Both the position numbers and the translations under genes were made by a program. Positions 2,308 to 30,759 of a stretch of 64,000 nt of DNA are shown here, piece after piece. Position 1 is the first letter of the stretch. Every line of letters starts with the position of its first letter. The notes beneath the pieces were generated by a model that was not told where the DNA came from, made no database searches, and was given only the letters and a program-made list of their open reading frames with translations. Source of the stretch: an uncultured Fibrobacteraceae bacterium (lineage in GTDB: Bacteria; Krumholzibacteriota; Krumholzibacteriia; LZORAL124-64-63); assembly GCA_964607825.1 (NCBI GenBank), contig CAZSNA010000004.1, forward strand, positions 14,160-78,159, given 5' to 3'.

Positions 2308-2838
2308 CTAGTCTTCTTCCTGCGCCCTGCGCAGGATCTCCAGCGCCTTGCGCATGGCCTCGGGGCTGGCGCCGTGGAGGCTGTCCTCCAGCTCGCCGCG
2401 CAGCTCCACCTTCTCGGTCGCGCCGTCGTCCACGGGCAGGCCGAGGGCGCGGCGGATGCTCTCCACGTAGCTCTTGGGGTTGACCGGCTTCTCCAGGTAG
2501 GTGCCGGGGCCGCTGATCATGCGGCTGTCCAGCAGGTCCTGCAGCTCGTCGCGGCCCATCTCGTCGCCGGCGTGGGCCGTGACGATCAGCACGGGGATGC
2601 GGGCCAGGTCCTTGTCGCGGCGCAGCTCGTAGAGGAGCTTGTGGCCGGACATGCCGGGCATGATCAGGTCGAGGGAGATGAAGTCCGGCGGGTCGGCGCG
2701 GACCATCTCCAGGGCCTCGCGGCCGTCGCCGGCCTCCTGCACCCTGAAGCCCGCGTCCTGCAGGATCATCGCCAGGTACTGGCGGACGTCGGGTTCGTCG
2801 TCGACGACCAGCACGGTCTTGTCGTGGGCCTGGTCCAT
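2308..2838 (-). CDS. Response regulator receiver protein
   Basis: VLVVDDEPDV...ISLDLIMP...LEKP receiver motifs with a short C-terminal tail. Confidence 0.85.
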   Translation of the reverse strand: MDQAHDKTVLVVDDEPDVRQYLAMILQDAGFRVQEAGDGREALEMVRADPPDFISLDLIMPGMSGHKLLYELRRDKDLARIPVLIVTAHAGDEMGRDELQDLLDSRMISGPGTYLEKPVNPKSYVESIRRALGLPVDDGATEKVELRGELEDSLHGASPEAMRKALEILRRAQEED

Positions 2839-2839
2839 G

Positions 2840-4663: not shown

Positions 4664-6654
4664 GGGGCCAGTCCCTTCGCGGCGCCGGCGCCGGACCGGC
4701 GGGCCAGATCGGCGTCGACCACGGCGTGGGTGCGGCGGATCAGGGCCCGCTTGTCGCCGAAGTCGCTGCGGTGGCAGGTGGCGCATTCGTTCAGGTGCGT
4801 GTGCTGCTCCGCCTCGGCCGCCTGGGCGTGGCAGCCCCGGCAGAGACCGTGCAGGGCGTCCAGGTACGACGGCGCCAGGCCCGGTCCCAGATCCTCGGTG
4901 GTGCGCACCAGGGTCTCGTCGATCGTGGCGAAGCGGTGGCAGTCGTCGCAGGCCCGCGCGTGGGCGCGGTCCTTGGGCGCCGAGGGGTCGGGGTGGCACT
5001 CGGTGCAGCTCTCGCGTCCGCCCAGCACCCGCTCGTGCACCTCGTGGGAGAAGGTGTCGGTCGCCTCGTACATGTCCCGGTGGCAGTAGGAGCAGGAGGT
5101 CGCCTGGTCCAGGGGCAGGTTGCGGTGATGGCACATGGCGCAGGAGCGCTGGCCGCCCAGGCGGTGCTTGTGGCACTTGTGCTCGTAGAGGACGAAGCGG
5201 TCCGCGCCGCCGCTGTCGATCAGCAGGGCCCGGCGGATGCCGCTGGACTCGTCGCAGGTCGTGACGGCGCCCTGCGCCACCAGGGCGAAGTCGTGCCCCG
5301 GGCCTTCTTCGGCCGCCGTGCGCTTCATCAGCACGTTGCGCGGCGGATCCACCCGCGAGGGCGTCAGGCGGGAACGGTCGGCGATCTGCGCCTCCATGAC
5401 GATCAGGCCGACCACCGCGCCGACGAACAGCGCCAGCACGGCCCGCTGCCCGCCGCCGAACCAGGGCGCGCGGATGAACTGGCGTCCCACCGGATCGTAG
5501 GCCGCCGGCGTGTAGGTGTCGGGCGACTCGGGTCGCTCCTCCCACACGTCCAGCTTCTCGATGAAGAACAGGAAGACCAGCGCCAGCCCGGCCACGATGC
5601 CCATGCTGGTGATCACCTCGGTCAGGGCCGGCACGTAGGCCTCGCCCGTGACCGCGATGTGGGAGATGCCGCCCACGTTGGCCCGGTGCAGCACGAAGCC
5701 CGAGACCGCCAGCAGGGCGCCCCAGCCGATGGCCCAGCCCTGGCCGCGATGACCGGGCAGCGAGAAGAGCAGCACCGGCAGGATCACGCTCATGAGCAGC
5801 TCGATCCAGAACAGGACCGCGTAGCCGGAGCCGTCGAAGGCGAGCCCGAGATGGCCGCGCACGCCCAGGTCGACCAGGCGCAGCGCGAGGTAGAGCGGGA
5901 GCACCACCGCGGCGGCCTGCGTCAGGCCGGCGAGCTGGGGCCACTCGGTCTTGCGGCGGTAGAGCCAGGAGGTGATGACGCCCTCGAGGGTCACCATCGC
6001 CAGGCCCAGCCCGATGGCCGAGATCAGGAACAGCGGGGACTGGAGCGGGCTGTACCACAGGGGGTGCATGCGCGTCTCGGTCAGCAGGAACAGGGTGCCC
6101 AGCGAGGACTGGTGGAGGGTCGACAGGGCGATGCCCGCGATCACCAGGGGCAGGGTCGCCTTCCTCAGGACGCGCACGAGCGGCCGGGCCCATTCGAAAC
6201 GCCCAAGGCCGACGGGCGCGAACTCGAGCGCCAGCACGGCCGTGTACAGCATCACGCACATGCCGACCTCGAAGAGCGGCGAGTGCAGGTTGTGGTTCAC
6301 GATCATGCGCCAGATGTTGTACGGCCGCCCCAGGTCGACCAGCAGGCCGATGATCACGCCCAGGTAGCCCAGGAACGCGGTCAGCACGGCCGGTCGCGCG
6401 ATGCCGTGGTAGTGCTCGCGTCCGAAGACGTAGACCGTGGCCGCGATCACGAAGCCGCCCGCGGCCAGGGCCACGCCGGACAGCACGTCGAAGCCGATCC
6501 ACAGGCCCCAGGGGGTGAGGTCGGTCAGGTCGGTGGTCAGGCCGAGTCCGCGGACGTAGCGTACGGCCGCGATCAGTCCGGCGGCGCCCACCAGGAACCA
6601 CAGGACGGCCTTCACGGCGATCAGCCGGTTGTTGGTGCCGATGTTGACGCTCAC
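4660..6654 (-). CDS. NrfD/HybB/HmcC-family membrane subunit fused to a C-terminal hexaheme cytochrome c domain
   Basis: GTGA overlap start. PWGLWIGFDV, DLGRP, LHQSSLG NrfD/HybB motifs. Six CxxCH (CAMCH, CSYCH, CTECH, CDDCH, CRGCH, CATCH) follow the last hydrophobic helix. Confidence 0.88.
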   Translation of the reverse strand: MSVNIGTNNRLIAVKAVLWFLVGAAGLIAAVRYVRGLGLTTDLTDLTPWGLWIGFDVLSGVALAAGGFVIAATVYVFGREHYHGIARPAVLTAFLGYLGVIIGLLVDLGRPYNIWRMIVNHNLHSPLFEVGMCVMLYTAVLALEFAPVGLGRFEWARPLVRVLRKATLPLVIAGIALSTLHQSSLGTLFLLTETRMHPLWYSPLQSPLFLISAIGLGLAMVTLEGVITSWLYRRKTEWPQLAGLTQAAAVVLPLYLALRLVDLGVRGHLGLAFDGSGYAVLFWIELLMSVILPVLLFSLPGHRGQGWAIGWGALLAVSGFVLHRANVGGISHIAVTGEAYVPALTEVITSMGIVAGLALVFLFFIEKLDVWEERPESPDTYTPAAYDPVGRQFIRAPWFGGGQRAVLALFVGAVVGLIVMEAQIADRSRLTPSRVDPPRNVLMKRTAAEEGPGHDFALVAQGAVTTCDESSGIRRALLIDSGGADRFVLYEHKCHKHRLGGQRSCAMCHHRNLPLDQATSCSYCHRDMYEATDTFSHEVHERVLGGRESCTECHPDPSAPKDRAHARACDDCHRFATIDETLVRTTEDLGPGLAPSYLDALHGLCRGCHAQAAEAEQHTHLNECATCHRSDFGDKRALIRRTHAVVDADLARRSGAGAAKGLAP

Positions 6655-7472
6655 GACGGCTCCTCCTCGCTCGCGGGATCCTCGGTCGGCTCGGGAGTCT
6701 GTGCGGCTTCCAGAACCGCCGCCTCGGCGGCCAGCTTCTGGCGCCTCTTGATCACCCAGTGGATGCCGGCCATGGCCACGCCCACCGTGACGAACGTCGC
6801 CGGCACCGTGTGCAGCACCTTGTCCGCCAGCTCGGGCACCGCGCCCTCGGGCAGCGAGCCCGGCCAGCCGGCCTGGACCAGGTCCACGTCGGAGATGTAC
6901 AGCACCGAGGTGCCGCCCACCTCGTGCTCGCCCCAGACGTGGTCGATGTACAGGTCGGGCCGCGCGACGATGCGCCGCCTGGCCTCGGCCAGCAGCGCGT
7001 CGCGCTCGCCGAAGATCGTGGCCTGCTCGGGACAGGCCTCGGTGCAGGCGGGCTGCGTCAGCTCGCCCGCGCTGAGCTTCTCGTAGCAGAGGATGCACTT
7101 GCGCACCCGCGGATTGGGCGACTCCCACTCGTAGCGGGTCATCCGGAACGGGCAGGCCACCATGCAGTAGCGGCAGCCCAGGCAGATGCTCGCGTCGTAG
7201 GCGACCACGCCTTCGTCGGTGGTGTGCAGGGCGCCGACGGGACAGGCCGCGGCGCAGCCCGGCTCCAGGCAGTGACGGCAGTGGACGCGCACGTGGCGGC
7301 CCTCGGTCTGGGCCATGGTGGTCCAGCGGGTCGAGGACAGGTCCGTCGCCTTGCCCTGCCACGGATGCGGGGCGTCGCGCAGGCCCGTCTCGTTGGTGAC
7401 CTTGCAGGCGTGCACGCAGGTCTCGCAGCCCGTGCACCTGGTCACGTCGGTCAGGATCGCGAAGGAGCTCAT
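6651..7472 (-). CDS. HybA/HmcB-like 4x[4Fe-4S] protein with C-terminal membrane anchor
   Basis: CTGCETCVHAC, CRHCLEPGCAAACP, CLGCRYCMVACP, CILC...PACTEACP; hydrophobic C-terminal helix; ATGA overlap. Confidence 0.88.
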   Translation of the reverse strand: MSSFAILTDVTRCTGCETCVHACKVTNETGLRDAPHPWQGKATDLSSTRWTTMAQTEGRHVRVHCRHCLEPGCAAACPVGALHTTDEGVVAYDASICLGCRYCMVACPFRMTRYEWESPNPRVRKCILCYEKLSAGELTQPACTEACPEQATIFGERDALLAEARRRIVARPDLYIDHVWGEHEVGGTSVLYISDVDLVQAGWPGSLPEGAVPELADKVLHTVPATFVTVGVAMAGIHWVIKRRQKLAAEAAVLEAAQTPEPTEDPASEEEPS

Positions 7473-8170
7473 ATCGGTTCGTTCTCCTTGGCCAGGGCCA
7501 CCGCCACCCGCTTGCCGCTGTCGGCGGGGAAGCGCCAGCCGATCTCGCCGATCAGCTGGCTCAACGGGGCCAGCACGCAGTGGACGATCTTCGTGATGGG
7601 CGTGATGATCAGGGCCAGGTCGCCGGCCAGGACGTGCAGCAGCATCAGCAGCCGCGGCGCCGCCGGCGACGAGAGGGGATGCGCCGCCCACCAGCCGGTG
7701 CCGACCACCGCGAACAGCAGCAGCAGCACACCCACATCGCCGCCCCGGGTCAGGTCCCGGGTCGGGCGCGAGAGCAGGCGCAGGAAGAGGATCGTCACCA
7801 GACCGACGAGAGCCGCCAGGGTCAGGACGTCCGAGGGGCCGGCGGCCAGGCGCGGCCACCAGGCGGGCGCCAGCGGGCCCCAGAGGCCCACGTGGCCGGT
7901 GTAGAACAGGGGCAGTCCCAGGACGCCCGCATGGAAGACGAAGGACGCCAGCCCGTACAGCGGCCGATGGCGCAGCAGCCGCAACGGCAGCAGCCAGGCC
8001 ACGGTGTTGCGCACGAGGGCGTCGACGGGCAGGGTCTTGTCGCCGGCCCGCGCATGGGCGCTCCGGATCTGCCACAGCACCGTGCCGAGCCGGTACGCCA
8101 GACCCAGCAGACAGACCGCCAGGCTGACACGGAACAGGGGACCCTTGGCCAGTTCGATCCAGGTGTCCAT
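7469..8170 (-). CDS. NarI/DsrM/HmcE/TmcC-like membrane cytochrome b
   Basis: MDTWIELAKGPLFR start, multiple TM helices, conserved His in FVFHAG, GHV, LLHVL and TKIVH. Confidence 0.8.
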   Translation of the reverse strand: MDTWIELAKGPLFRVSLAVCLLGLAYRLGTVLWQIRSAHARAGDKTLPVDALVRNTVAWLLPLRLLRHRPLYGLASFVFHAGVLGLPLFYTGHVGLWGPLAPAWWPRLAAGPSDVLTLAALVGLVTILFLRLLSRPTRDLTRGGDVGVLLLLFAVVGTGWWAAHPLSSPAAPRLLMLLHVLAGDLALIITPITKIVHCVLAPLSQLIGEIGWRFPADSGKRVAVALAKENEPI

Positions 8171-9552
8171 CACGCCTCCTCGCCTTCGTCGCTGCTCTCG
8201 GTGATCTTCATGAACTCGGGCGCCTCGATGGCCTTCAGGATGAGGTCGTGCAGGCCGCAGACGCGCACGTCCACCTTGTGGTCCTGACAGACCTCGGCCA
8301 CCTGCTTCTTGCAGTTGGCGCAGGGCGCGACCACGATCTCGGCGTGGGTGCGCCGGATCTGGTCGGCCTTGGCCTTGCCGCCGACCATGGTGCGGAACTC
8401 GCGGATCTCGTCGATCGACACGGTGCCGCCGCCGCCCCCGCAGCAGTAGTTGTCGTGGCGGTTCGGGGTCATCTCCACGTAGTCGGTGCAGATGTGCTTC
8501 AGGATCTCCCGCGGCTGCTCGGTGATCCAGCCGCTGCGGGCGATGTTGCAGGGGTCGTGGTAGGTGACGCGCTCGGTGATCGCGTCGGGCTTGAGCCGGA
8601 GCTTGCCCGCCTTCCACTGGGCGTAGGTGTACTCCATGATGTTGACCACCGGCGGGGCGTCCTCGCCGCCGCAGAACGCCGGCACGAAGGCCTTGGCGGA
8701 GCGGGAGGCGTGGCCGCATTCGCCGATCAGGATCGTCTTGGCGCCCAGCCGCCTCACCTCCGCGGCCTCGTTGCTCACGATGCGGTCCAGCAGCCGGTCG
8801 CTGTAGAACAGCCCGTAGTTGATGCCGTCGAAGTTGCCGGTGCCGATGGTCCATGAGGCGCCGGTCGCCGCCATCACCGCGGCGTTGCCCATGAGCGTGT
8901 CGGGCTCCAGCAGGTAGTCGCTGACCGCCGGGAAGAACACGTACTCCGCGCCTTCCTTGTCCATGGGGAACTCGATCTTCAGGCCGTACTCGTCGGCGCA
9001 GTCCTCCTCGAGGAACTCGCAGGTGTCCTGCATGGCGGGGGCCGGGATGCCCGAGGTGTTGCCCGACTTGCCGTCGAGCTGCTCGCGGACGGACACCACC
9101 AGGGCCTTGGGCGTGAGTCCGACCTCGGCCAGCACCCAGCGCGCCAGGTGGGTGATCAGGCCGTGATCGACGCCGAGGGGGCACTCCAGCTTGCAGCGGC
9201 GGCAGGCCGTGCAGCGGTAGTAGTCGTCGGCCATGCGCTGGAGGTAGTCGTCGTCCAGCTCGAAGGTGTCGCCGAGGCGCGCCTTGAGGTTGCCCCCCAG
9301 GGTGAAGTAGCGCCGGTAGATGCGCAGGAGCAGCTCGCTGCGCTCGCAGGGGATGTCCCGCTTCTCGCCGGAGACCTGGTACACGGGACAGGTGTCGGCG
9401 CAGCGGCCGCAGCGGGCCTTCATGCGCGCCGCCGCGTCCAGCATCACGGCGTAGTTGGAGTGGGACAGGATGGCCGAGAAGGCGTCGAGGAAACGACGCG
9501 GCAGCTCCCGGGCATCCAGGTCCTCACGGTAGTAGGGGGTGGCGATGGGCAT
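8170..9552 (-). CDS. DsrK/HmcF/TmcB-like (HdrD-type) Fe-S CCG-domain oxidoreductase
   Basis: CGRCADTCP, IYRRYFT, CTACRRCKLECP, GECGH, YHDPCN, YCCGGGGG, PCANC; GGAG RBS upstream of the ATG at 9552. Confidence 0.85.
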   Translation of the reverse strand: MPIATPYYREDLDARELPRRFLDAFSAILSHSNYAVMLDAAARMKARCGRCADTCPVYQVSGEKRDIPCERSELLLRIYRRYFTLGGNLKARLGDTFELDDDYLQRMADDYYRCTACRRCKLECPLGVDHGLITHLARWVLAEVGLTPKALVVSVREQLDGKSGNTSGIPAPAMQDTCEFLEEDCADEYGLKIEFPMDKEGAEYVFFPAVSDYLLEPDTLMGNAAVMAATGASWTIGTGNFDGINYGLFYSDRLLDRIVSNEAAEVRRLGAKTILIGECGHASRSAKAFVPAFCGGEDAPPVVNIMEYTYAQWKAGKLRLKPDAITERVTYHDPCNIARSGWITEQPREILKHICTDYVEMTPNRHDNYCCGGGGGTVSIDEIREFRTMVGGKAKADQIRRTHAEIVVAPCANCKKQVAEVCQDHKVDVRVCGLHDLILKAIEAPEFMKITESSDEGEEA

Positions 9553-9617
9553 GTCACGACTCCGTTTGTGGGTCACCGGGACGCGGTCCGGGTGTGTCAT
9601 TCTCGCGCGAGCGCCAG

Positions 9618-9633
9618 GCATGGAGCGTGCCAA
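9618..9633 (-). promoter_or_regulatory. sigma54 (-24/-12) promoter of the leftward redox operon
   Basis: Minus strand TTGGCACGCTCCATGC = GG-N10-GC with a consensus TGGCACG, ~65 bp upstream of the first ATG. Confidence 0.8.
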
Positions 9634-9719
9634 ATTACAAACATCGCCATAAATTGTAATAGTGTAGCGGGTTGCGCGTGAATGCGCATGAGGGCATCAG
9701 CTCGCGGGGTGTCACATGT

Positions 9720-9782
9720 TGTTATAAAAATGGAACACGCGGTGTTTCAATGTCTCGATATCGAGACAATCACCGCGTGTTC
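9720..9782. promoter_or_regulatory. Candidate enhancer (UAS) for a sigma54 activator
   Basis: Perfect palindrome TGTCTCGATATCGAGACA (9751-9768). A second TGT-N12-ACA lies at 9720-9737. Flanking 12-bp IR GAACACGCGGTG / CACCGCGTGTTC. Confidence 0.65.
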
Positions 9783-9871
9783 GATCATTCGATTCATGAC
9801 GCCGCCGCCCCGGGAATCCGAGGCCGTGCCGCCGTCTCGTCGCCCGGGACCGATCGGCCGCCAGCGGACGA

Positions 9872-10201
9872 CTAGTCCTCGCCGCCCTCGCGGATGAGGT
9901 CGTAGGGCGTGTCCACGTTCGCGACGAGCGCCTTCATCTCCTCGACGTCGAACGCGCGCATGGTGTTGGTCCGCACGTTGCCGAGAGAGGACAGGGAATA
10001 GGCGAAGGCCGCCGCGGCCTTGTCGTCCTCGGCCTCGAAGAAGTGCACCAGATCGTAGCTGCCCACGGTCCACAGGGTGTGCTGGATGTCGACGCCCTTG
10101 GCCTTGATCCGCTCGGCGAAGGCCTCGGCCCGGGCCGTGGTCTTGCGGAGATTCTTGATACCCGTGTCGGTGAAGGTCAGCAGGCTTACGTACTTGGCCA
10201 T
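9872..10201 (-). CDS. GYD-domain protein
   Basis: MAKYVSLLTFTDTGIKN...WTVGSYDLV...GNVRTNTMRAF pattern; AAGGGAGAAG RBS. Confidence 0.8.
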   Translation of the reverse strand: MAKYVSLLTFTDTGIKNLRKTTARAEAFAERIKAKGVDIQHTLWTVGSYDLVHFFEAEDDKAAAAFAYSLSSLGNVRTNTMRAFDVEEMKALVANVDTPYDLIREGGED

Positions 10202-10351
10202 CGGTCTTCTCCCTTGTCGTACGTTTCGAGAACTCCCTATCACAAAGTAGCACGCCCCCCCGCCGCCCGGCAAACGGATTGAGCTTCCAGGTCGTTAAAA
10301 AGATAGGTGTTACGGTGTCCTGTATCGTGGGGGACCGGTGCGCGGCGGCGG

Positions 10352-10381
10352 TTGTGCGGAGACGTGTCGATATGGTATTAT
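10352..10381 (+). promoter_or_regulatory. Possible sigma70 promoter of the qmo-dsrJOP operon
   Basis: TTGTGC-N18-TATTAT with an extended -10 TG. Confidence 0.4.
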
Positions 10382-10585
10382 CGGTTCGCATCGCGTCGGT
10401 TCAGCGCCCTGGTTCCTCATCAGCGTTGCACGCCGTTTCCCGAACGGGGATCCGCACGTCGAGGAGGGGGGCGCTCTTGCATCACGGGCCCGTACAACCC
10501 GCCGGCTTCGCGCCGTCCCGATCGATCGACCCGCCGTCCGCTTCTCACCTCGTCCTCAAAACCCGATACAGGAGTCGCGAACGCC

Positions 10586-11848
10586 ATGGACGTTAGCACA
10601 CGGCCCGTTCTGGTCATCGGTGGCGGTATCGCGGGCATGACGGCGGCGGTGGAGATCGCCGAGACGGGTCATCCCGTGATCCTGGTGGAGAAGGAGGCCT
10701 GCCTCGGCGGGCGCGTGATGCGTACGCACCGCTACTTCCCCAAGATGTGTCCGCCCACCTGCGGCTTCGAGATCAACGTGCGCCGCATCCGGAGCAACCC
10801 GCTGATCACCGTCCACACCCTGGCCACGGTGGAGGAGATCATCGGTCACCCGGGCAAGTTCAAGGCCCGCATCAAGGTCAGGCCGCGCTACGTGACCGGC
10901 GAGACCTCGCTGGACGACGCGCTCGTCGATCGTCTCGAATCGGAACGCGACAACGACTTCAACTTCGGACTGGATCGGACCAAGGCCGTCTACCGTCCCC
11001 ACGAGATGGCCTATCCCGCGCTGCATGTCGTCGACCGCGAGGCCCTGTCCGATGCGGACGCGGCCCTGCTGACCGACGCCGCCCCGCCCGGCGCCGTCGA
11101 CCTGGAGATGAAGGCGTCGGGCTTCGAGGTCATGGTGGGGGCGGTGATCGTGGCCACGGGCTGGCGGCCCTACGACGCCGGCCACCTGGATCACCTGGGT
11201 TACGGCCGCTGCGCCAACGTGGTCACCAACGTCGTGATGGAGCGGCTGGCCGCCCGCAACGGCCCCACCGGCGGCGCGATCCTGCGGCCGTCGGACGGCG
11301 AACCGCCCCGCAGCGTGGCGTTCGTCCAGTGCGCCGGCTCCCGCGACGAGAACCACCTGCCCTACTGCTCGGCCGTGTGCTGCATGGCCTCGCTCAAACA
11401 GGTCCGCTACCTGCGCGAGAAGGTGCCGGAGGCCACCGCGACGATCTACTACATCGACATCCGCACCATCGGCCGGCTGGAGAAGTTCTACCAGGACATG
11501 CTCGAGGACGAGCAGGTCGCGTTCATCAAGGGCAAGGTGGCGCTGATCGAGGAGGATGCGGGCACCGGCGAGCTGCGGCTCGACGTCGAGGACACGCTGG
11601 CGGGGGAGACCGGGCATCCGCGCTTCGACATGGTCGTCCTGGCCACCGGCGTGGTCCCCGAAACCGACGACCTCGCGCTGCCCGAGGAGATGCCCGCCGA
11701 CGCGTACGGCTTCTTCGACGGCACGGCCGATTGCCCCGGCGTCTTCGCGGCGGGCTGCGCCCGTCATCCCTGCGACGTGTCCCGCGCCACCAAGGAGGCG
11801 GCGGGCGCCGCGCTCAAGGCGATCCAGTGTCTGTACGGAGGAGATTGA
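10586..11848 (+). CDS. qmoA: QmoA (HdrA-like flavoprotein)
   Basis: GGGIAG FAD motif, YFPKMCPPTCG, FVQCAGSRDENHLPYCSAVCC, AALKAIQ; 420 aa. Confidence 0.88.
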   Translation: MDVSTRPVLVIGGGIAGMTAAVEIAETGHPVILVEKEACLGGRVMRTHRYFPKMCPPTCGFEINVRRIRSNPLITVHTLATVEEIIGHPGKFKARIKVRPRYVTGETSLDDALVDRLESERDNDFNFGLDRTKAVYRPHEMAYPALHVVDREALSDADAALLTDAAPPGAVDLEMKASGFEVMVGAVIVATGWRPYDAGHLDHLGYGRCANVVTNVVMERLAARNGPTGGAILRPSDGEPPRSVAFVQCAGSRDENHLPYCSAVCCMASLKQVRYLREKVPEATATIYYIDIRTIGRLEKFYQDMLEDEQVAFIKGKVALIEEDAGTGELRLDVEDTLAGETGHPRFDMVVLATGVVPETDDLALPEEMPADAYGFFDGTADCPGVFAAGCARHPCDVSRATKEAAGAALKAIQCLYGGD

Positions 11849-11852
11849 GCCC

Positions 11853-14126
11853 ATGGCGGACAAGATCGGCGTCTTCATCTGCACAGGTTACGGCATCGCC
11901 GAGGCCCTCGACGTCGAGGCCCTGACCAAGGTCGCCACGGACGAATGCGACGCGGCCTTCTGCCGCACCGTGGAAACCTGCGAGGGCTCCGACCTCGACG
12001 CCATCCTCGCGGACATCGCGCGCGAGGAGCTGGACGGGGCCGTCATCGCCGGCATCTCGGGGCGCCGCTACGAGCCGGCCGTCCTGCCCGCGGACGTGGT
12101 GATCGAGCCCCTGGCCCTGCGCGAGCACGTGGTCTGGTGCCAGCCGCCCGGCGAGGAGGACACCCAGATGCTGGCGGAGGACTACCTCCGCATGTACGCG
12201 GCCAAGGTCGGCAAGATGTCCGTGCCGGAACCCTTCGCGCCGGAGGAGGAGATCGACCGGACCGTGCTGGTGGTCGGCGGCGGCGTGACCGGCCTGACCG
12301 CGGCCCTCGAGGCGGCCCGCGCCGGCTACGAGGTGCGGCTGGTCGAGAAGTCGGACCGGTTGGGCGGCTGGCTGGCCCGCCAGCACAGGTCGGTGCCCAC
12401 GCGCCCGCCCTACCGCGAGCTGGAGGAGACGGGCGTCGAGGCGCTGGCGGCCGCGGTGGAGGGCCACGACCGGATCCGCGTGCACACCTCGGCGGTCACG
12501 GGCGCCATCGTCGGCGCGCCGGGCCTCTTCGACGTGACCCTGCACGCGGCGGACGACGCGGCCGACGCGCCCGCGGCGCTGGATGCCTTCCGCGTCGGCG
12601 CCGTGATCCAGGCCACCGGCTGGACCCCCGTCGATCCCCGTCCGGACCTGCCCTGGGGCGAGGTTCCCGACGTGGTGCTGAACGTGGACCTGGAGGAGAT
12701 GGTCGGGGCGGGCGGCGACCTGGTCCGTCCGTCCGACGGGCGGAAGATCGAGCGCGTGGCCTTCGTGCAGTGCGGCGGCCGGCGCGACCCGGAGCACCAC
12801 TCCTACTGCTCGTCCATCTGCTGCCGCAACTCGCTCAAGCAGGCCCTCTACCTGCGCGAGCGCAGCGACGACGCCAAGGCCTACATCTTCTACGAGTTCA
12901 TGCGTACGCCCGGCCAGGCCGAGGAGTTCTACCGGCGCGTGCAGGAGGACCCCGGGGTGTTTCTCACGCGCGGCGGCGTCACCGACGTGACGCGCGACGA
13001 CGCCGGCGACCTCGTGGTCACCGTCGCCGACACCATGCTCGGCGAGCAGGTGCAGGTGAAGGCGGACCTGGTGGTCCTGGCGGCCGGCATGCGGCCCAAC
13101 GCCGCCGACGGCGAGGCCATCCGGCTCCTGGAGGACGCCAAGCTGGCCGCCGTCGAGGGGGAGTCCGAGGTGCAGCGCGAGGTCGCCGCGGCCAAGGCCG
13201 AGGAGCTGAAGGCCCACGAGGGCACCGCCATCCTCAACCTGAACTACCGCCAGGGGCCGGACCTGCCGGCCCTGGAATACGGCTTCCCCGACTCCCACTT
13301 CATCTGCTTCCCCTACGAGAGCCGGCGTACGGGCGTCTATCCCGCCGGCTGCGTGCGCTCGCCCATGGACGGCGAGGCCAGCCGCGAGGACGCCGCCGGG
13401 GCCGCGCTGAAGGCGATCCAGTGCCTGGAGATGACCGCGCGCGGCGAGGCCGTGCATCCGCGCTCGGGCGACCGCTCCCATCCCGAGTTCTTCATGCAGC
13501 GCTGCACCCAGTGCAAGCGCTGCACGGAGGAGTGCCCCTTCGGCATGCTCAACGAGGACGAGAAGGGCACGCCGCTGGTGCAGACCACCCGCTGCCGCCG
13601 CTGCGGCATCTGCCTGGGCGCCTGCCCCGAGCGCATCGTCTCCTTCGCGGACTACTCGGTGGAGATCCTCGCCTCGATGATCAAGGCCGTCGAGGTGCCC
13701 GACGAGTTCGAGGAGAAGCCGCGCATCCTGGCGCTGATGTGCGAGAACGACGCCCTGCCGGCCCTGGAGCTGGCGGCCCGGCACCGGCTGTCCATCAACC
13801 CCTTCGTGCGGGTGCTGCCGGTGCGCTGCCTGGGCTCGGTCAACGTGGAGTGGGTCAACCAGGCCGTCTCGCGCGGCTTCGACGGCGTGCTGCTCTTCGG
13901 CTGCAAGTACGGCGACGACTACCAGTGCCACTTCATCAAGGGCAGCGAACTGGCCAACGCGCGCGGCGAGAACATCCGCGAGAAGCTGGAGAAGATGGCC
14001 ATGGAGCAGGAGCGGGTGGAGATCCACCAGCTGGAGGTCGACGAATACGAGAGGCTGCCAGCGATCATCGACGCCTTCGCGGAGGTGATCGAGGAGGTCG
14101 GCATGAACCCGTTCAAGGGCATGTGA
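11853..14126 (+). CDS. qmoB: QmoB (HdrA-like FAD/Fe-S protein with MvhD-like C-terminus)
   Basis: YCSSICC, LNLNYRQGPDLP, GFPDSHFICFPYESRRTG, two ferredoxin motifs, CENDA...RCLGS...GCKYGDDYQCHF...NPFKG; 757 aa. Confidence 0.92.
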   Translation: MADKIGVFICTGYGIAEALDVEALTKVATDECDAAFCRTVETCEGSDLDAILADIAREELDGAVIAGISGRRYEPAVLPADVVIEPLALREHVVWCQPPGEEDTQMLAEDYLRMYAAKVGKMSVPEPFAPEEEIDRTVLVVGGGVTGLTAALEAARAGYEVRLVEKSDRLGGWLARQHRSVPTRPPYRELEETGVEALAAAVEGHDRIRVHTSAVTGAIVGAPGLFDVTLHAADDAADAPAALDAFRVGAVIQATGWTPVDPRPDLPWGEVPDVVLNVDLEEMVGAGGDLVRPSDGRKIERVAFVQCGGRRDPEHHSYCSSICCRNSLKQALYLRERSDDAKAYIFYEFMRTPGQAEEFYRRVQEDPGVFLTRGGVTDVTRDDAGDLVVTVADTMLGEQVQVKADLVVLAAGMRPNAADGEAIRLLEDAKLAAVEGESEVQREVAAAKAEELKAHEGTAILNLNYRQGPDLPALEYGFPDSHFICFPYESRRTGVYPAGCVRSPMDGEASREDAAGAALKAIQCLEMTARGEAVHPRSGDRSHPEFFMQRCTQCKRCTEECPFGMLNEDEKGTPLVQTTRCRRCGICLGACPERIVSFADYSVEILASMIKAVEVPDEFEEKPRILALMCENDALPALELAARHRLSINPFVRVLPVRCLGSVNVEWVNQAVSRGFDGVLLFGCKYGDDYQCHFIKGSELANARGENIREKLEKMAMEQERVEIHQLEVDEYERLPAIIDAFAEVIEEVGMNPFKGM

Positions 14127-14166
14127 CGAGACGCGCGCCGCCGCGTCGGGTCGGAGGGACAGACGC

Positions 14167-15447
14167 TTGGCCGGAGACGGACAGTCCGGACGCATCCTGC
14201 AGGTGGAGCCCGATCTCGCCTTCATCCGCAGGCTCGGCGACCGCATCGGACCCGAGTTCAAGAAGTGCATGCAGTGCGGCACCTGCGCCGCCACGTGCTC
14301 CCTCTCGCCCGAGTCCGCCGCCTTCCCGCGCAAGGAGGTGATCTGGGCCGCCTGGGGCTGGAAGGACCGCCTCGTGCGCGACACGGACGTCTGGCTCTGC
14401 TACCAGTGCAACGACTGCTCCACGCGTTGCCCCCGCGGCGCCCATCCCGGCGACATCCTGGCGGCGGTGCGCCAGGAGAGCATCATCCACTTCGCGCGGC
14501 CGCGGTTCCTGGCGCGCTGGGTCAACGACATCCGCTACGTGCCGCTGCTGCTGGCCGTCCCCACGCTGCTGCTGTTTCTGCTGCTGAAGCTGCGCGATCC
14601 CCTGGCCGCGGCCCTGGGCCTGGGCGACGGCACCGGCGAACGCATCGTCTACGCCTATTCCAGCCACTTCCCGCACTGGCTGCTCAACGGCTTCTTCCTG
14701 GGCTGCGCCGCGCTGGTGCTGCTGGGGGCCGTGCTCAGCGCCCGGCGCTTCTGGCGGGCCCTGAAGACCTCGCTGGAGCTGGACGCGGGGGCCGAGCCGG
14801 TGCAGGGCCTGTGGCCCAGTCTCGCGGCGGCCCTGAAGAACGTGGTGCGGCACGACAACTTCGCCGTCTGCAGCACGGCGCATATCCGCTACGTGTCGCA
14901 TCCCTTCTTCTTCTTCGGGTTCTTCTCCCTGTCGGCGGTCACGCTGTGGGTGATCACCTCCGGGATCAATCCCCTGATCCGGGGCGACTTCGTCTATCCC
15001 TTCGCCTTCTGGAGCCCCTGGAAGGTGCTGGCCAACCTGGGCGGGCTGGCGGTGGTCGCCGGCTGCATCCTGACCATCCGCGAGCGGCTCTTCGGCACAG
15101 CCTACAACACCGCGGGCAACTACTACGACTGGTCGCTGCTGATCGGCCTGATCCTGGTGGCGCTGACCGGCTTCCTCACCGAGATCTGGCACTACTTCCG
15201 CATGGAGCCCCACCGGCACATCGCGTATTTCATCCATCTGGTCTTCGTCTTCGCGCTGATCGTCTACATGCCCTACGCCAAGTTCGCCCACGTGGTCTAC
15301 CGCACCACCGCCCTGGTGCTGGCCGAACGCTACGGCCGCAAGCGGGAACGCCCGGCCGCGGCCGCCGACGCGCGGCGCCGGGCCCTGATCATCGGCGAGC
15401 CGCCGGCGCCGCAGGTCGATGCGGAAGAGGGGGGTGAGGAGGCGTGA
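14167..15447 (+). CDS. qmoC: QmoC (HdrC-like Fe-S domain plus heme-b membrane domain)
   Basis: CMQCGTCAATC, FPRKEVIWAAWG, WLCYQCNDCSTRCPRGA, TM helices, PYAKFAH. Confidence 0.9.
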   Translation: MAGDGQSGRILQVEPDLAFIRRLGDRIGPEFKKCMQCGTCAATCSLSPESAAFPRKEVIWAAWGWKDRLVRDTDVWLCYQCNDCSTRCPRGAHPGDILAAVRQESIIHFARPRFLARWVNDIRYVPLLLAVPTLLLFLLLKLRDPLAAALGLGDGTGERIVYAYSSHFPHWLLNGFFLGCAALVLLGAVLSARRFWRALKTSLELDAGAEPVQGLWPSLAAALKNVVRHDNFAVCSTAHIRYVSHPFFFFGFFSLSAVTLWVITSGINPLIRGDFVYPFAFWSPWKVLANLGGLAVVAGCILTIRERLFGTAYNTAGNYYDWSLLIGLILVALTGFLTEIWHYFRMEPHRHIAYFIHLVFVFALIVYMPYAKFAHVVYRTTALVLAERYGRKRERPAAAADARRRALIIGEPPAPQVDAEEGGEEA

Positions 15448-15896
15448 GCACGCTGGAGAAGATCGGCCGCGGCAAGACCATCGTGCTGGTGACCCTGCCC
15501 ATCGTGGTCATCCTGGCGCCCCTGGCCCACAGCGTCTACGACCGCGTGTCCGCGGGGGAGACGCCCACGGAGGCGCCGTTCCTGGAGTACCCCGCCGATC
15601 GCGAGGGGGGCTGCGTCCGCGACACCGAATACATGCGCTTCCACCACTGGGAGCTGTTGCGGGAGGTGCGCGACGCCTCGGTGCGGGACGGCGCGCGCGG
15701 CGGCATCACCCTCTCGGGCTGCCGCGACTGCCACCCGAGCCGCGACCGCTTCTGCAACCGCTGCCACGAGGCGGTGAGCCTGCAGCCCGACTGTTTCGGC
15801 TGCCACTACTATCCGGCCGACCCCGCGTCCGGCGACGGAGGCGAAGCCCACGGCGGCGAGGAGGTGAGGACGGCATGGACCGCAGGGACTTCCTGA
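15444..15896 (+). CDS. dsrJ: DsrJ-like membrane-anchored triheme cytochrome c
   Basis: N-terminal TM helix, CV...YMR..H..LL...RD..VR, three CxxCH (CRDCH, CNRCH, CFGCH). Confidence 0.78.
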   Translation: MSTLEKIGRGKTIVLVTLPIVVILAPLAHSVYDRVSAGETPTEAPFLEYPADREGGCVRDTEYMRFHHWELLREVRDASVRDGARGGITLSGCRDCHPSRDRFCNRCHEAVSLQPDCFGCHYYPADPASGDGGEAHGGEEVRTAWTAGTS

Positions 15897-16603
15897 GGAC
15901 CGGCGGCCTGTTCCTGGTGGGCGCGCCCACCGTGTACGGCCTGCTGGCCGCGGCCGCGCCCCGGCCGGGCGGATCCGCGGGCCTCGGCGCGCGTCGCTGG
16001 GGCCTGGTGATCGACCTGCGCCGCTGCCCCGACGGCTGCACCGCCTGCCTCGACGCCTGCCGCCGCGAGAACAACGTCGCCCTGCACGGCGACCCGCACT
16101 GGGACCTGCACTGGATCCGCAAGGTGCGGATCCGCCGCCGACACGACGAGGACGGCCCCGAGCGCGCCGTGCCCATGCTCTGCAACCACTGCGACCGGCC
16201 GCCCTGCGCCCAGGTCTGCCCGGTGAAGGCCACCTACAAGCGGAACGACGGCATCGTGATCGTCGATCACCACCGCTGCATCGGGTGCCGCTACTGCCTG
16301 ATCGCCTGTCCCTACAACGCCCGCCAGTTCAACTACCGCGAGAACGAGGACTGGCCCAACAAGGACTACCCCAAGCGCTCCCACGGCGTGGCCGAGTCGT
16401 GCCACCTCTGCGCCCACCGCCTGGACGTCGGCGAGCCGCCGGCCTGCGTGGAGGCCTGCCGGGGCGCCGACGCGGGCGCGCTGGTCGTGGGCGACCTGAA
16501 CGATCCCGACAGCGAGATCTCCCGGCTGATCGCCGGCAACTCCGTCAAGCGGCTCAGGGACGACCTGGGCACCGAACCCAAGGTCCACTACATCGGACTC
16601 TGA
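15875..16603 (+). CDS. dsrO: DsrO-like Tat-exported Fe-S protein
   Basis: MDRRDFL Tat motif, WGLVIDL, HWIR, LCNHCDRPPCAQVCP, DHHRCIGCRYC, GTEPKVHY. Confidence 0.82.
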   Translation: MDRRDFLRTGGLFLVGAPTVYGLLAAAAPRPGGSAGLGARRWGLVIDLRRCPDGCTACLDACRRENNVALHGDPHWDLHWIRKVRIRRRHDEDGPERAVPMLCNHCDRPPCAQVCPVKATYKRNDGIVIVDHHRCIGCRYCLIACPYNARQFNYRENEDWPNKDYPKRSHGVAESCHLCAHRLDVGEPPACVEACRGADAGALVVGDLNDPDSEISRLIAGNSVKRLRDDLGTEPKVHYIGL

Positions 16604-16604
16604 G

Positions 16605-17891
16605 ATGATGGAATACGACTACAGACCGATCGAGGGCCGCTCACGGGGCTACTACGCGCTCCTGACGACGTTGCTGCTGCTCATCGCGGCCGGCCTCTTC
16701 GCCACGTTCCGTCTGTCCGCCCACGGCCTCCATCTCTCGGGCATGACCAACCGCATCCCCTGGGGCCTGCAGATCGTGATGGCCGTCTTCTACATCGGCC
16801 TCTCGGCGGGGTCGCTGGTGGTGTCCGGGCTCTACGGCATCTTCGGCAAGCTGGAATACAAGCCCTTCGCGCGCATCGCCGCCTTCCTGGCCATGCTGTT
16901 CCTGGTCGCGGGCCTGCTCTCGATCATCACCGACCAGGGCCGCATCGACCGGGTGTTCGTCATGCCCTTCGCCCACGTCAATCCCACGTCCATGTTCTCG
17001 CTCAATCCCATCCTGTACTCGGGCCACATCATGATGTGCATCTTCTACATGTGGGCCCTCTTCAAGGAGAAGGGACGGCTGACCAAGGTGGTCTCGGTGA
17101 CGGTCGTGCTGTGGGCCCTCTGCGTGCACACGGGGACGGGCGCCATCTTCGCCTTCACGCCCCGGGAGCTCTACAACACCGCCCTGCTGCCGCCGAGCTT
17201 CGTGGCGGCGGCCCTGTCCTCGGGCGCCGCCCTGATGATCCTGGTGCTGACGACGCTGTTCCGGGTCACCCGGCGCTACCTGGACGTGGTGCTGGTGATC
17301 TGGCTGGGCCGGCTGCTGGCCGTGTTCATCGTCGTGGCGCTGTACGTGATCCTGATCGAGAACGCCCACCGCTTCTACCAGATCGAATCGCACGAGACCA
17401 CGGCCCACCACCTCTTCGAGGGCTACCATGCCGTCCTGTTCTGGGGCGGGCTGATCCTGGTCGGTTCGATCGTCCCGGCCCTGGTGCTGTTCAACCGGCG
17501 CACGGGCACCTCGCTGCGCTGGATCATCTTCGCATCGGTGCTGGTGGTGATCGGCGTGATCTGCGAGCGGTACCTGATCGTCCTGCCGGGGCTGGAGTAT
17601 CCGCCCGAGATCCTGCCCGGCTGGGAGATCGTCGCCTCGCCGCTGGCCGAGGGGATCGTCACCTACCGCATCAGCGGGTACGAGCTGCTGCAGGCCCTGG
17701 GGGTGATGAGCTTCATCGCCTTCATCTTCGTCCTGGGGCTGAAGTACCTGCCGGTGCTGCCCATCGAGGCGCGGGCCCACGGTCCCTCCCAGATGCTCGA
17801 GACCATGATGGGCCGGGCCTTCGGCCGGGCCGTCGAGCGGCACCGCGAACGGGCGGTGGCCCGGGGCCACATCGTCGAGGACACCGAATAG
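16605..17891 (+). CDS. dsrP: DsrP-like NrfD-family membrane protein
   Basis: GMTNRIPWGLQI, DQGRIDR, VHTGTG, many TM helices; follows dsrJO. Confidence 0.78.
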   Translation: MMEYDYRPIEGRSRGYYALLTTLLLLIAAGLFATFRLSAHGLHLSGMTNRIPWGLQIVMAVFYIGLSAGSLVVSGLYGIFGKLEYKPFARIAAFLAMLFLVAGLLSIITDQGRIDRVFVMPFAHVNPTSMFSLNPILYSGHIMMCIFYMWALFKEKGRLTKVVSVTVVLWALCVHTGTGAIFAFTPRELYNTALLPPSFVAAALSSGAALMILVLTTLFRVTRRYLDVVLVIWLGRLLAVFIVVALYVILIENAHRFYQIESHETTAHHLFEGYHAVLFWGGLILVGSIVPALVLFNRRTGTSLRWIIFASVLVVIGVICERYLIVLPGLEYPPEILPGWEIVASPLAEGIVTYRISGYELLQALGVMSFIAFIFVLGLKYLPVLPIEARAHGPSQMLETMMGRAFGRAVERHRERAVARGHIVEDTE

Positions 17892-17987
17892 CGACGCGCC
17901 GGCCGGCGCCCCTTCGGGGCTGCGCGGGCGGGTCGGTCGTGCTACGCTCGCACCGCTCGGCCGCGCGGGCCGGGCGGGAGGCGAACC

Positions 17988-19334
<1,347 letters not shown>

Positions 19335-19449
19335 GGCGCGCCCTCCGGCACCGGCAGCGGCGACTAATTCGGATTATCATGGTACAGTTTCAGTCTCCGC
19401 CTTGCCCGGGGTCCGCGCGGACTCCGTCCACACTTCCGGGGGGTAACAC

Positions 19450-20013
19450 ATGGAATTCCTGACCGTCCTCTGGCTGCCGATCCTGCTGGCCGCCGTGCTG
19501 GTGTTCATCGTCAGCTCGATCCTCCACATGGTCTTCAAGTACCACAACAGCGAGTTCAAGGCGCTGCCGGGCGAGGATGAGATCCTGGCGAACATGCGCG
19601 ACAAGGGGGTCGAGCCCGGCCTCTACGCCTTCCCGCGCTGCGAGTCCATGAAGGCGATGGGCGAGCCCGAGATGGTGGCCAAGTATGAGTCGGGTCCGGT
19701 GGGCTTCATGACCGTCGGGCCGAGCGGCCCGCCGAACATGGGACCGTCCCTCGCGCAGTGGTTCCTGTATTCGGTGCTGATCGGCTTCTTCACCGCCTAC
19801 CTCGGCTGGTTCGCCCTGGGCCGCGGCGCCGAGTACATGGACGTCTTCCGCTTCACCGGCACGGCCGCGTTCATGGCCTACGGGCTGGGCGCCCTCTCCG
19901 ACGGCATCTGGATGAAGACGCCCTGGAGCAGCGTCATGAAGCACGTCTTCGACGCGCTGGTCTACGGGCTCTGCACGGCCGGCGTCTTCGCCTGGCTGTG
20001 GCCGGAGCTGTAG
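19450..20013 (+). CDS. Conserved-looking membrane protein of unknown function
   Basis: Host-like codon usage and several hydrophobic helices. Confidence 0.7.
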   Translation: MEFLTVLWLPILLAAVLVFIVSSILHMVFKYHNSEFKALPGEDEILANMRDKGVEPGLYAFPRCESMKAMGEPEMVAKYESGPVGFMTVGPSGPPNMGPSLAQWFLYSVLIGFFTAYLGWFALGRGAEYMDVFRFTGTAAFMAYGLGALSDGIWMKTPWSSVMKHVFDALVYGLCTAGVFAWLWPEL

Positions 20014-22757: not shown

Positions 22758-22832
22758 CGTGGGGCCGGTGGTCCCCGTCCGCCGGATCACGTATACTGAT
22801 GAGGCCCCTGTGATCAGCAACCCGGGAGAGAC

Positions 22833-27003: not shown

Positions 27004-27249
27004 GCGTCTCCCGGACAACGGGTTCGGAGGATCGGCCCAGGGAAGCATATCCGGCCGCAAAAAGGAAGCGCCGCCGCCCGGCTTGCGTCCGTCCGGGCGG
27101 TTGGTGTAGTGTCGGCATTCTGAAAACAGCCTTGCGATATCATCGGCCGTAAGAGCGGCCGTTCGATGGAAACGAACCGAGAGGAGCGCCATCCAAACAC
27201 ACGCGACGGTCCCGCGGGGCCTCGCACCACTTTCGAATGGGGGGACATC

Positions 27250-30683: not shown

Positions 30684-30714
30684 AGGGCCCCGGGAGTGAT
30701 CCCGGGGCCCTTTG
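30684..30714 (+). terminator. Intrinsic terminator
   Basis: AGGGCCCCGGGA-GTGA-TCCCGGGGCCCT followed by TTGT. Confidence 0.75.
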
Positions 30715-30759
30715 TGCGGGGACGGCGATGTGATAAGCTGCCAGGAAGGGGGTTATGAC

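Follow-up and report, generated by a model that had tools for sequence, protein, structure and literature searches.

The DNA analysed here is a stretch of 64,000 nucleotides, which we call the window, from contig CAZSNA010000004.1 of an uncultured Fibrobacteraceae bacterium (assembly GCA_964607825.1). It has a G+C content of about 70% and carries six tightly packed genes on the plus strand between positions 10586 and 17891, in the order qmoA, qmoB, qmoC, a dsrJ-like gene, a dsrO-like gene and a gene of the NrfD family. QmoABC is the quinone-interacting membrane-bound oxidoreductase of sulfate reducers and Chlorobi and is usually encoded beside aprBA, and DsrMKJOP (Hme) is the DsrC-trisulfide reductase of sulfate respiration. 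We named the cluster the Qmo-JOP operon, where JOP stands for the DsrJ-, DsrO- and DsrP-type genes, and marked its products with a 2. The genes are as follows.

10586..11848, plus strand: qmoA paralogue (QmoA2), HdrA-like flavin adenine dinucleotide (FAD) flavoprotein of 420 amino acids, ATG start after aggag
11853..14126, plus strand: qmoB paralogue (QmoB2), HdrA-like flavoprotein of 757 amino acids with two 4Fe-4S motifs and a C-terminal MvhD/VhuD-like domain
14167..15447, plus strand: qmoC paralogue (QmoC2), 426 amino acids, HdrC-like two-cluster N-terminus and a six-helix cytochrome-b-like membrane domain
15444..15896, plus strand: dsrJ-like gene (DsrJ2), triheme cytochrome c of 150 amino acids with an N-terminal anchor, GTG start within the qmoC stop (GTGA)
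15875..16603, plus strand: dsrO-like gene (DsrO2), ferredoxin of 242 amino acids exported by twin-arginine translocation (Tat), with 16 Cys and the Tat motif RRDFLR
16605..17891, plus strand: NrfD-family gene (DsrP2), integral membrane subunit of 428 amino acids with nine or ten hydrophobic segments

QmoA2 matched the NCBIfam model HdrA2 with 323.6 bits (residues 98-512 of the long frame) as well as Pfam FAD/pyridine-nucleotide domains. QmoB2 matched HdrA2 with 357.2 bits and, at its C-terminus, VhuD with 47.3 bits, and it has two CxxCxxCxxxC motifs. QmoC2 passed the cut-off of the NCBIfam qmoC model NF038018 (337.9 vs 300 bits). It also has two CxxCxxCxxxC motifs, followed by six hydrophobic segments, and its residues 17-106, approximately, matched HdrC chains in a sequence search of the PDB. 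The eight Cys residues of both motifs and the residues H245, H342, H357 and H375 are invariant across 28 QmoC2 orthologues.

Among the products of the other three genes, DsrO2 scored above the NCBIfam DsrO cut-off (288.5 vs 200 bits), with TtrB (178.8), QrcC (136.8) and NrfC (131.9) next in rank. DsrJ2 has three CXXCH motifs and scored 64.1 bits with the NCBIfam DsrJ model, under the cut-off of 100. DsrP2 belongs to the NrfD family of Pfam (159.6 bits, E 1.9e-46); its top NCBIfam model was DsrP, at 95.8 bits against a cut-off of 350, and QrcD reached 49.4. In the PDB sequence search no chain of a solved Qmo or DsrMKJOP complex was matched, and DsrP2 matched ActC of alternative complex III alone (E 3.1e-7).

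The junctions in the window are short throughout: a gap of 4 nucleotides (nt) between qmoA and qmoB and of 40 nt between qmoB and qmoC, an overlap of 4 nt (GTGA) between qmoC and dsrJ and of 22 nt between dsrJ and dsrO, and a gap of 1 nt before the last gene. GGAG/GAGG-like sequences precede most of the six start codons. None of the six genes matched DsrM or DsrK in Pfam or NCBIfam, and neither aprBA nor sat nor canonical dsrMK was found between or directly beside them. Our gene calls and domain models thus reproduced what an earlier, sequence-only reading of this DNA had reported, namely the six genes with their coordinates and strand, their tight coupling and the GTGA overlap. That reading had described an operon without aprAB or dsrMK, possibly unrelated to sulfate reduction, and had named as checks a genome search for sat, aprAB and dsrABC, phylogenies of the Qmo and JOP proteins, and a survey of the qmoC-dsrJ adjacency.

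The window is part of contig C4, and the whole genome comes to 3.67 Mb at 97% completeness. The genome search found a canonical apr/dsr pathway on another contig, C48, in the order DsrL-like flavoprotein, sat, qmoC-qmoB-qmoA, aprA, aprB, dsrA, dsrB, a gene of 79 amino acids, dsrN, dsrC, dsrT-M and dsrK-J-O-P. The DsrL-like protein adjoining sat is an NAD(P)-binding Fe-S flavoprotein, and the 79-amino-acid gene, which stands in the dsrD position, matched no family. The absence of aprAB and dsrMK therefore holds at the operon but not genome-wide, as both are present on C48 and a DsrK/HmcF-like and HmcE/TmcC-like pair lies next door to the operon on the opposite strand. Identities between the window and C48 copies were 45% for QmoA, 52% for QmoB, 31% for QmoC, 34% for DsrJ, 41% for DsrO and 25% for DsrP. 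At such values (25-52%) the operon counts as a second set of paralogues, not as the pathway in rearranged form. The genome has one aprA locus.

Several other genes of this genome belong to related families. The dsrM frame on C48 (L085:696-2216) encodes 506 amino acids, of which the DsrM model covers residues 186-505 only; this is consistent with a dsrT-dsrM fusion like the one described in PMC6018805. Contigs C98 and C54 (loci L130 and L128) carry genes for a periplasmic [NiFe] hydrogenase of the Hyb type, with HybA and HybB, and for a Qrc/alternative complex III-like NrfC-NrfD pair; the genome has five NrfD paralogues in all. A further HdrA-like cluster with an HdrC-like piece lies on contig C45 at about 19.4-27.0 kb; its proteins are 26-37% identical to QmoA2 and QmoB2 and served as the outgroup of the QmoB tree described below.

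The gene order of the operon was followed in other genomes in a survey seeded on DsrP2. Among 8000 candidates scored, 828 relatives of DsrP2 were found at E<=1e-10, and the best 120 were all at least 63% identical. A 22-sequence alignment, with one genome taken per species, gave 152 pattern matches, of which 110 were confirmed and 80 loci kept. The carriers are titled Gemmatimonadota, Acidobacteriota, Zixibacteria, Planctomycetota, Latescibacterota, Calditrichaeota, LCP-89 and unclassified bacteria; these phylum names are those of the record titles, and one genome of the window's own class is titled Candidatus Latescibacterota. A total of 56 loci extend 6.3 kb or more upstream of DsrP2, and in 54 of these all six genes were found in order. 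The two loci out of order (L009 and L035) have 100-N scaffold gaps exactly at the break. Of the 24 shorter loci, 22 were scored as agreeing with this order as far as the contig reaches; the remaining two (L018 and L078) were flagged by a QmoA-to-QmoB cross-match alone, and their B-C-J-O-P genes are in order. Such a six-gene arrangement is far beyond chance. The order of qmoABC and dsrJOP-type genes is a real unit conserved in many phyla, and the qmoC-dsrJ adjacency, being widespread, is no one-off rearrangement.

The tightest junction was that between qmoC and dsrJ. With start codons as chosen by the script, 28 of 48 loci showed an overlap of these genes (exactly 4 nt long in 20), and in 45 of the 48 the two were within 30 nt of each other. 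The largest gap inside the operon was that between qmoB and qmoC (median 83 nt), which would allow sub-operonic regulation. This gap is one point in favour of two co-transcribed machines, one being an ordinary second QmoABC and the other a JOP quinol:cytochrome-c module that stands by itself, out of contact with QmoC. Another is that NrfCD-type dimeric modules work alone or with varied partners (PMC6303296). We regard this arrangement as quite unlikely. The order is kept in nearly all complete loci across phyla, and the junction where the two machines would part is the tightest and often an overlap. QmoC, the only membrane subunit of Qmo, has diverged most from its canonical counterpart (31% identity, compared with 45-52% for QmoA and QmoB), as expected if its contacts had changed. 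Finally, no DsrP2-type gene without Qmo genes was met where the DNA allowed the check, a result that runs one way since the survey was seeded on DsrP2.

To describe the association with sulfur metabolism, genes were counted in 50 carrier genomes besides the window's own. As the carriers are metagenome-assembled genomes and mutually related, these counts describe a pattern and do not amount to a statistical test. In 47 of the 50, dsrA was above cut-off; two of the remaining three have dsrB with a fragment of dsrA, and the third shows no convincing match. A match to aprA at E<=1e-100 was present in 42 carriers (39 over cut-off), and never at two loci. The qmoC model was passed twice at full length in 45 carriers, at least two QmoB matches were found in 45, and canonical DsrP was above cut-off in 44. 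DsrP scores in the 50 carriers fell into two groups, the operon copies listed at 76-96 bits and the canonical ones at 352-476 bits. We also considered that the hybrid Qmo might be the only Qmo in some phyla, with canonical qmoC alone beside aprBA in Zixibacteria-type genomes. This idea was dropped, as canonical QmoB is found elsewhere in 45 of the 50 genomes.

The same pattern was seen within the phylum of the window. Among its 208 genomes DsrP2 was found in 15, dsrA in 24 and aprA in 25. Of the 15 carriers, 13 have dsrA and 13 have aprA, and the operon was present in 2 of the 184 dsrA-negative genomes. One of these two is 83% complete and has aprA; the other is scaffolded and has dsrB with a dsrA fragment. 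Physical linkage was also observed in several genomes. Downstream of the operon in an Acidobacteriota locus (L021) come a HAMP-PAS kinase, aprB, aprA, a CxxCxxCC protein and canonical qmoA and qmoB, and linkage to aprBA was met in a second Acidobacteriota locus (L018), though not in the window. One contig of 43.7 kb (genome G002) holds the operon, dsrAB, dsrP, aprA and canonical qmo genes together. In genome G258 (locus L082) the sole QmoB found is that of the operon, and aprA is present.

These patterns make the operon an accessory of the Dsr/Apr pathway, essentially confined to organisms that possess that pathway. The sequence-only reading had proposed a transmembrane conduit to HdrA-type, potentially bifurcating, flavoproteins, possibly unrelated to sulfate reduction. 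Two features of the operon speak for such a general conduit with no role in sulfur metabolism: the operon itself contains no apr or dsr genes of the canonical kind, and QmoA and QmoB are homologues of HdrA. We consider it very improbable. Its occurrence is almost confined to dsrA- and aprA-positive genomes, second QmoC and canonical DsrP copies accompany it in most carriers, it adjoins aprBA or dsr clusters in some genomes, and its QmoB falls among canonical QmoB, apart from the other HdrA-like proteins of the genome.

The last point was drawn from a QmoB tree of 49 rows, with 26 operon copies and 21 canonical ones. A branch of support 100 parts all Qmo copies from the genome's other HdrA-like proteins. 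Of the 26 operon copies, 25 form one clade with a value of 100 in the Shimodaira-Hasegawa-like approximate likelihood-ratio test (SH-aLRT), placed among canonical QmoB. The exception is the QmoB of L082, which groups with canonical copies; the QmoC, DsrJ, DsrO and DsrP of that locus are closer to the operon type. In approximately unbiased (AU) tests, a tree with all 26 operon QmoB together, L082 included, was not rejected (p 0.068), and one with the 21 canonical QmoB as a single clade was rejected (p 0.0009), a result that the single odd row L082 may drive. On this tree the Qmo genes of the operon are best placed as derivatives of bacterial canonical Qmo. L082 is a contig of 7648 bp whose record is titled Proteobacteria bacterium; possibly it represents a deep or ancestral form, with the JOP-linked Qmo as its sole Qmo.

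A DsrO tree of 64 rows was built by a quick method, with three long-branched NrfC-type paralogues of the window's genome (Hyb, Hmc-like and Qrc/alternative complex III-like) as outgroups. The 41 operon copies form one clade (SH-aLRT 95) and the 20 canonical DsrO of the same genomes another (SH-aLRT 95), so that DsrO2 is sister to canonical DsrO among the sequences included. Three CXXCH motifs and an upstream Cys...Met..His motif are common to all 61 operon and all 20 canonical DsrJ sequences. By model ranking the JOP genes are of the Dsr type and not of the Qrc, Ttr or Nrf type, yet they make up a distinct subfamily. The grouping of JOP with unrelated NrfCD or Qrc families that the earlier phylogenetic check was to detect was not found in the DsrO tree.

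Taken together, we lean slightly towards the view that the operon encodes an accessory, separately regulated six-subunit Qmo-JOP membrane complex of dissimilatory sulfur metabolism in which QmoC replaces DsrMK. The complex would be built like DsrMKJOP, with QmoC2 in the place of DsrM and DsrK and QmoA2 and QmoB2 as its cytoplasmic head. The earlier claim that QmoC replaces DsrM stood as architecture, as QmoC stands where DsrMK stands in dsrMKJOP; the physical assembly itself is predicted. A module facing the periplasm would consist of DsrP2 as the NrfD-type quinone subunit, DsrO2 as the Tat-exported Fe-S protein and DsrJ2 as the triheme cytochrome, and it would exchange electrons with the two b-haems of QmoC2. 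QmoC2 would move electrons across the membrane through its HdrC-like Fe-S domain to the flavins of QmoB2 and QmoA2. The flow might run in either direction, towards reducing adenosine 5'-phosphosulfate (APS) or from the oxidation of sulfite.

As the operon has no CCG catalytic domain of the DsrK type, DsrC trisulfide cannot be the substrate. The most likely cytoplasmic partner would be APS reductase AprAB, by analogy with canonical Qmo; it is the most economical candidate, given how closely the operon Qmo branches from canonical Qmo and given the physical linkage seen in some genomes. By the same analogy, the JOP module may add a second quinone site, a periplasmic point of entry or exit for electrons, or both, and the APS/sulfite step might thereby be better coupled to the membrane potential. 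The operon would be expressed conditionally, under a PAS/sigma-54 activator in the window and under a HAMP-PAS kinase and response regulator elsewhere. A complex prediction for QmoC2 with DsrP2 gave a score of 0.01 (mark, 0.32) and was counted neither for nor against the proposed assembly.

A number of observations weigh against this complex or its assignment to AprAB. Of the phylum's 24 dsrA-positive genomes, 11 are without the operon, among them one of the same genus that is 94% complete; the operon is therefore dispensable for the pathway. No AprAB-like gene appeared as a conserved neighbour across the flanks of the 80 loci, and AprAB, if it is the partner, must be shared with canonical Qmo because each genome has one aprA locus. 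In the window's phylum aprA and dsrA co-occur almost perfectly, and the phyletic pattern therefore cannot separate a link to Apr from a link to Dsr. Both DsrJ2 and DsrP2 stay under the NCBIfam cut-offs of their families (64.1/100 and 95.8/350), and the branch joining DsrO2 and canonical DsrO against the three same-genome outgroups has a support of only 77. All 80 surveyed loci come from metagenome-assembled genomes. Two separate co-transcribed complexes would also give the same synteny.

The same complex might instead work oxidatively. Electrons from sulfite/AMP oxidation by AprAB would pass through QmoA2, QmoB2 and QmoC2 to DsrJ2, which would hand them on either to the quinone pool or to periplasmic cytochromes plus a terminal oxidase. 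In that case the operon would act as a regulated reverse gear for lineages that are suspected to alternate between reducing sulfate and oxidising sulfur. Carrier lineages are discussed as possibly reversible, for example Acidobacteriota with DsrL and DsrD (PMC6018796 and PMC10564751). The present genome has a DsrL-like flavoprotein, the periplasmic Hyb-type hydrogenase and the alternative complex III/Qrc-like NrfCD set; the PAS-type sensors of the operon are as expected of a conditional mode; and DNA of the window was found in sequencing runs labelled seawater or marine metagenome, with no RNA run among those listed. The dsr cluster on C48, with its 79-amino-acid gene in the dsrD position, dsrN, dsrC and dsrT-M, has however a layout of the reductive type, and we judge the oxidative direction unlikely.

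The neighbours of the operon are listed below. The activator follows the operon on the plus strand, and the other genes lie upstream of qmoA on the minus strand.

17988..19334, plus strand: PAS, sigma-54 AAA+ activator and HTH_8 protein (Pfam Sigma54_activat 227.9, PAS 70.5, HTH_8 63 bits), candidate regulator of the operon
9872..10202, minus strand: small gene of 110 amino acids, divergent, directly upstream of qmoA, no Pfam or NCBIfam match
8170-9633, minus strand: DsrK/HmcF-like CCG protein (DsrK model 292.1 bits vs cut-off 400)
about 7469-8170, minus strand: HmcE/TmcC-like cytochrome b, by model match
about 6651-7470, minus strand: HmcB/HybA-like ferredoxin, by model match
4660 to about 6600, minus strand: HmcC/HybB-like NrfD protein, by model match
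3000-4660, minus strand: PAS histidine kinase, after the Hmc-like set
2308-2994, minus strand: response regulator, after the PAS histidine kinase

Orthologues of the activator, 78-79% identical, adjoin the operon on its upstream side in two loci of the same genus (L004:1908-3254 and L006:1539-2882). The activator lies downstream in the window, and has thus moved and is still adjacent. The sigma-54 pattern TGGCAC-N5-TTGCW, allowing up to 2 mismatches, gave 18 matches in the window where 20 were expected, none of them upstream of qmoA. Since no such promoter match precedes qmoA, the link between activator and operon is drawn from adjacency. One match at 9617-9632 on the minus strand, TGGCACGCTCCATGCC, looks like a -24/-12 element for sigma-54 with 2 mismatches. 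Its place is the 5' end of the longest DsrK-like frame, upstream of the family-matching part, and it is not above chance. A scan of 9500-19600 for sigma-70 promoters and terminators gave nothing delimiting the operon.

The 110-amino-acid gene has orthologues of 57-66% identity in the same position in three loci (L004, L005 and L006). Beyond it, a divergent Hmc-like gene set on the minus strand (2308-9633) adjoins the Qmo-JOP operon, and in L004 and L006 its DsrK-like and HmcE-like genes are placed likewise. A gene for a large cytochrome of the HmcA type was not seen in the window's Hmc-like set. The C-terminal 286 residues of the HmcC/HybB-like protein (4660-5520, minus strand) matched Cytochrom_CIII (E 9.4e-9) and Cytochrome_C7, which points to a putative fusion of an NrfD membrane subunit with a cytochrome c3-like domain, whether encoded as a single gene or as two in one frame.

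When the flanking open reading frames (ORFs) of the 80 loci were clustered, only two kinds of neighbour were widely conserved: response regulators of the CheY type, in 48 loci, and HAMP-PAS histidine kinases, in two clusters (29 and 19 loci). No conserved enzyme partner was found among these clusters, the remainder being spurious antisense ORFs. Elsewhere in the window, a FlgD Ig-like C-terminal domain was seen on four predicted secreted proteins at 2-1675, 22803-24989, 27124-30657 and 30700-31566. They are an alpha-amylase, an LVIVD-repeat protein, a DUF7901/GEVED protein and a protein of 288 amino acids, and the domain is possibly a shared C-terminal sorting or anchoring domain.

Two questions about sulfate respiration bear on this locus: how electrons at the level of menaquinol drive APS reduction through Qmo, and what DsrJOP adds to DsrMK. 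What DsrJOP does within DsrMKJOP has been called an enigma, and a gain in energetic efficiency, by way of quinone cycling or proton pumping, has been proposed for it (PMC10861901); NrfCD-type modules can be electrogenic (PMC6303296). A natural and conserved joining of Qmo and JOP without DsrMK suggests that JOP is a transferable coupling module and not specific to DsrC chemistry. We advance tentatively, as a possibility that falls well short of even, that DsrJOP is a portable energy-coupling unit, for quinone cycling or proton movement, that can sit on a different haem-b/Hdr-type core. On Qmo it would render the APS/sulfite step, which is awkward thermodynamically, electrogenic or reversible, and it would provide a regulated alternative route in phyla that are new to the sulfur cycle (Gemmatimonadota, Zixibacteria, Acidobacteriota, Planctomycetota and Latescibacterota). 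If JOP is such a unit, its function is independent of DsrK/DsrC chemistry, which bears directly on what DsrJOP does. The Qmo-JOP operon is a defined target for testing JOP as a coupling module.

The operon also matters for the annotation of metagenomes. As qmoC and dsrO of the window pass curated cut-offs for sulfate reduction, copies from the operon can be counted as canonical Qmo or Dsr in metagenome surveys, and such miscounted copies would inflate or blur pathway calls in phyla newly added to the sulfur cycle. Full-text literature searches turned up no description of the operon, and the available text of PMC10504309, PMC10564751, PMC10591310, PMC6018805, PMC8477390, PMC6338057, PMC10861901, PMC6303296 and PMC6018796 holds no account of a qmoABC set linked to genes of the dsrJOP type. 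Figures on synteny in the supplements of PMC10504309 and PMC8477390, and the NrfD review of Duarte et al. 2021, may bear on this point.

Several known systems resemble the operon in part. One is a Qmo called type II, from Vulcanisaeta moutnovskia and Ammonifex degensii, whose QmoAB is nearer to typical HdrA than to bacterial QmoAB according to the accessible part of PMC10504309. It is likewise a non-canonical Qmo set, found also in organisms where its function is unclear. The operon QmoB is placed among bacterial canonical QmoB, a comparison in which type II entered by its description, and that part of the paper mentions no link of type II to dsrJOP-type genes. An identity of the two, which we had considered as a candidate, is unlikely given the position of the operon copies in the QmoB tree.

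With canonical QmoABC the operon has in common the three subunits, ordered alike and similar in size; its QmoC is over the family cut-off, its QmoB falls with canonical copies, and the cluster Cys and haem His residues are kept. It differs in being paralogous to the canonical set of the same genome (31-52% identity), in forming its own clade (25 of 26 QmoB), in not standing beside aprBA in the window, and in being always followed by three DsrJOP-type genes.

With DsrMKJOP the operon shares the J-O-P trio in the same order, a DsrO-type ferredoxin over cut-off and an NrfD-type subunit whose best model is DsrP. Canonical DsrJ has a conserved extra Cys and a His/Cys haem ligand, and DsrJ2 too is a triheme cytochrome with the Cys/Met/His motif. 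In both systems a dihaem-b-type membrane protein and a cytoplasmic Fe-S domain are encoded directly upstream of JOP. Unlike DsrMKJOP, the operon has neither DsrM nor a CCG-domain DsrK and carries QmoC and two HdrA-like flavoproteins in their place; its DsrJ2 and DsrP2 are under the family cut-offs and its DsrO2 forms a separate clade.

Like the Hmc- and Tmc-type complexes of sulfate reducers, which combine periplasmic cytochrome c with membrane subunits and a cytoplasmic DsrK-like protein, the predicted complex would wire a periplasmic or quinone-side redox module across the membrane to a cytoplasmic Hdr-related one. The cytoplasmic end of the operon differs from theirs in having HdrA-like flavoproteins and no CCG protein, and its subunits score best on Qmo and Dsr models and not on those for Hmc or Tmc. 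From Qrc, Ttr, Psr, Nrf, Hyb, Hmc and alternative complex III it is set apart as DsrO2 and DsrP2 score best on Dsr models, and the Hyb, Hmc-like and Qrc/alternative complex III-like NrfC proteins of the same genome fall outside the group formed by DsrO and DsrO2.

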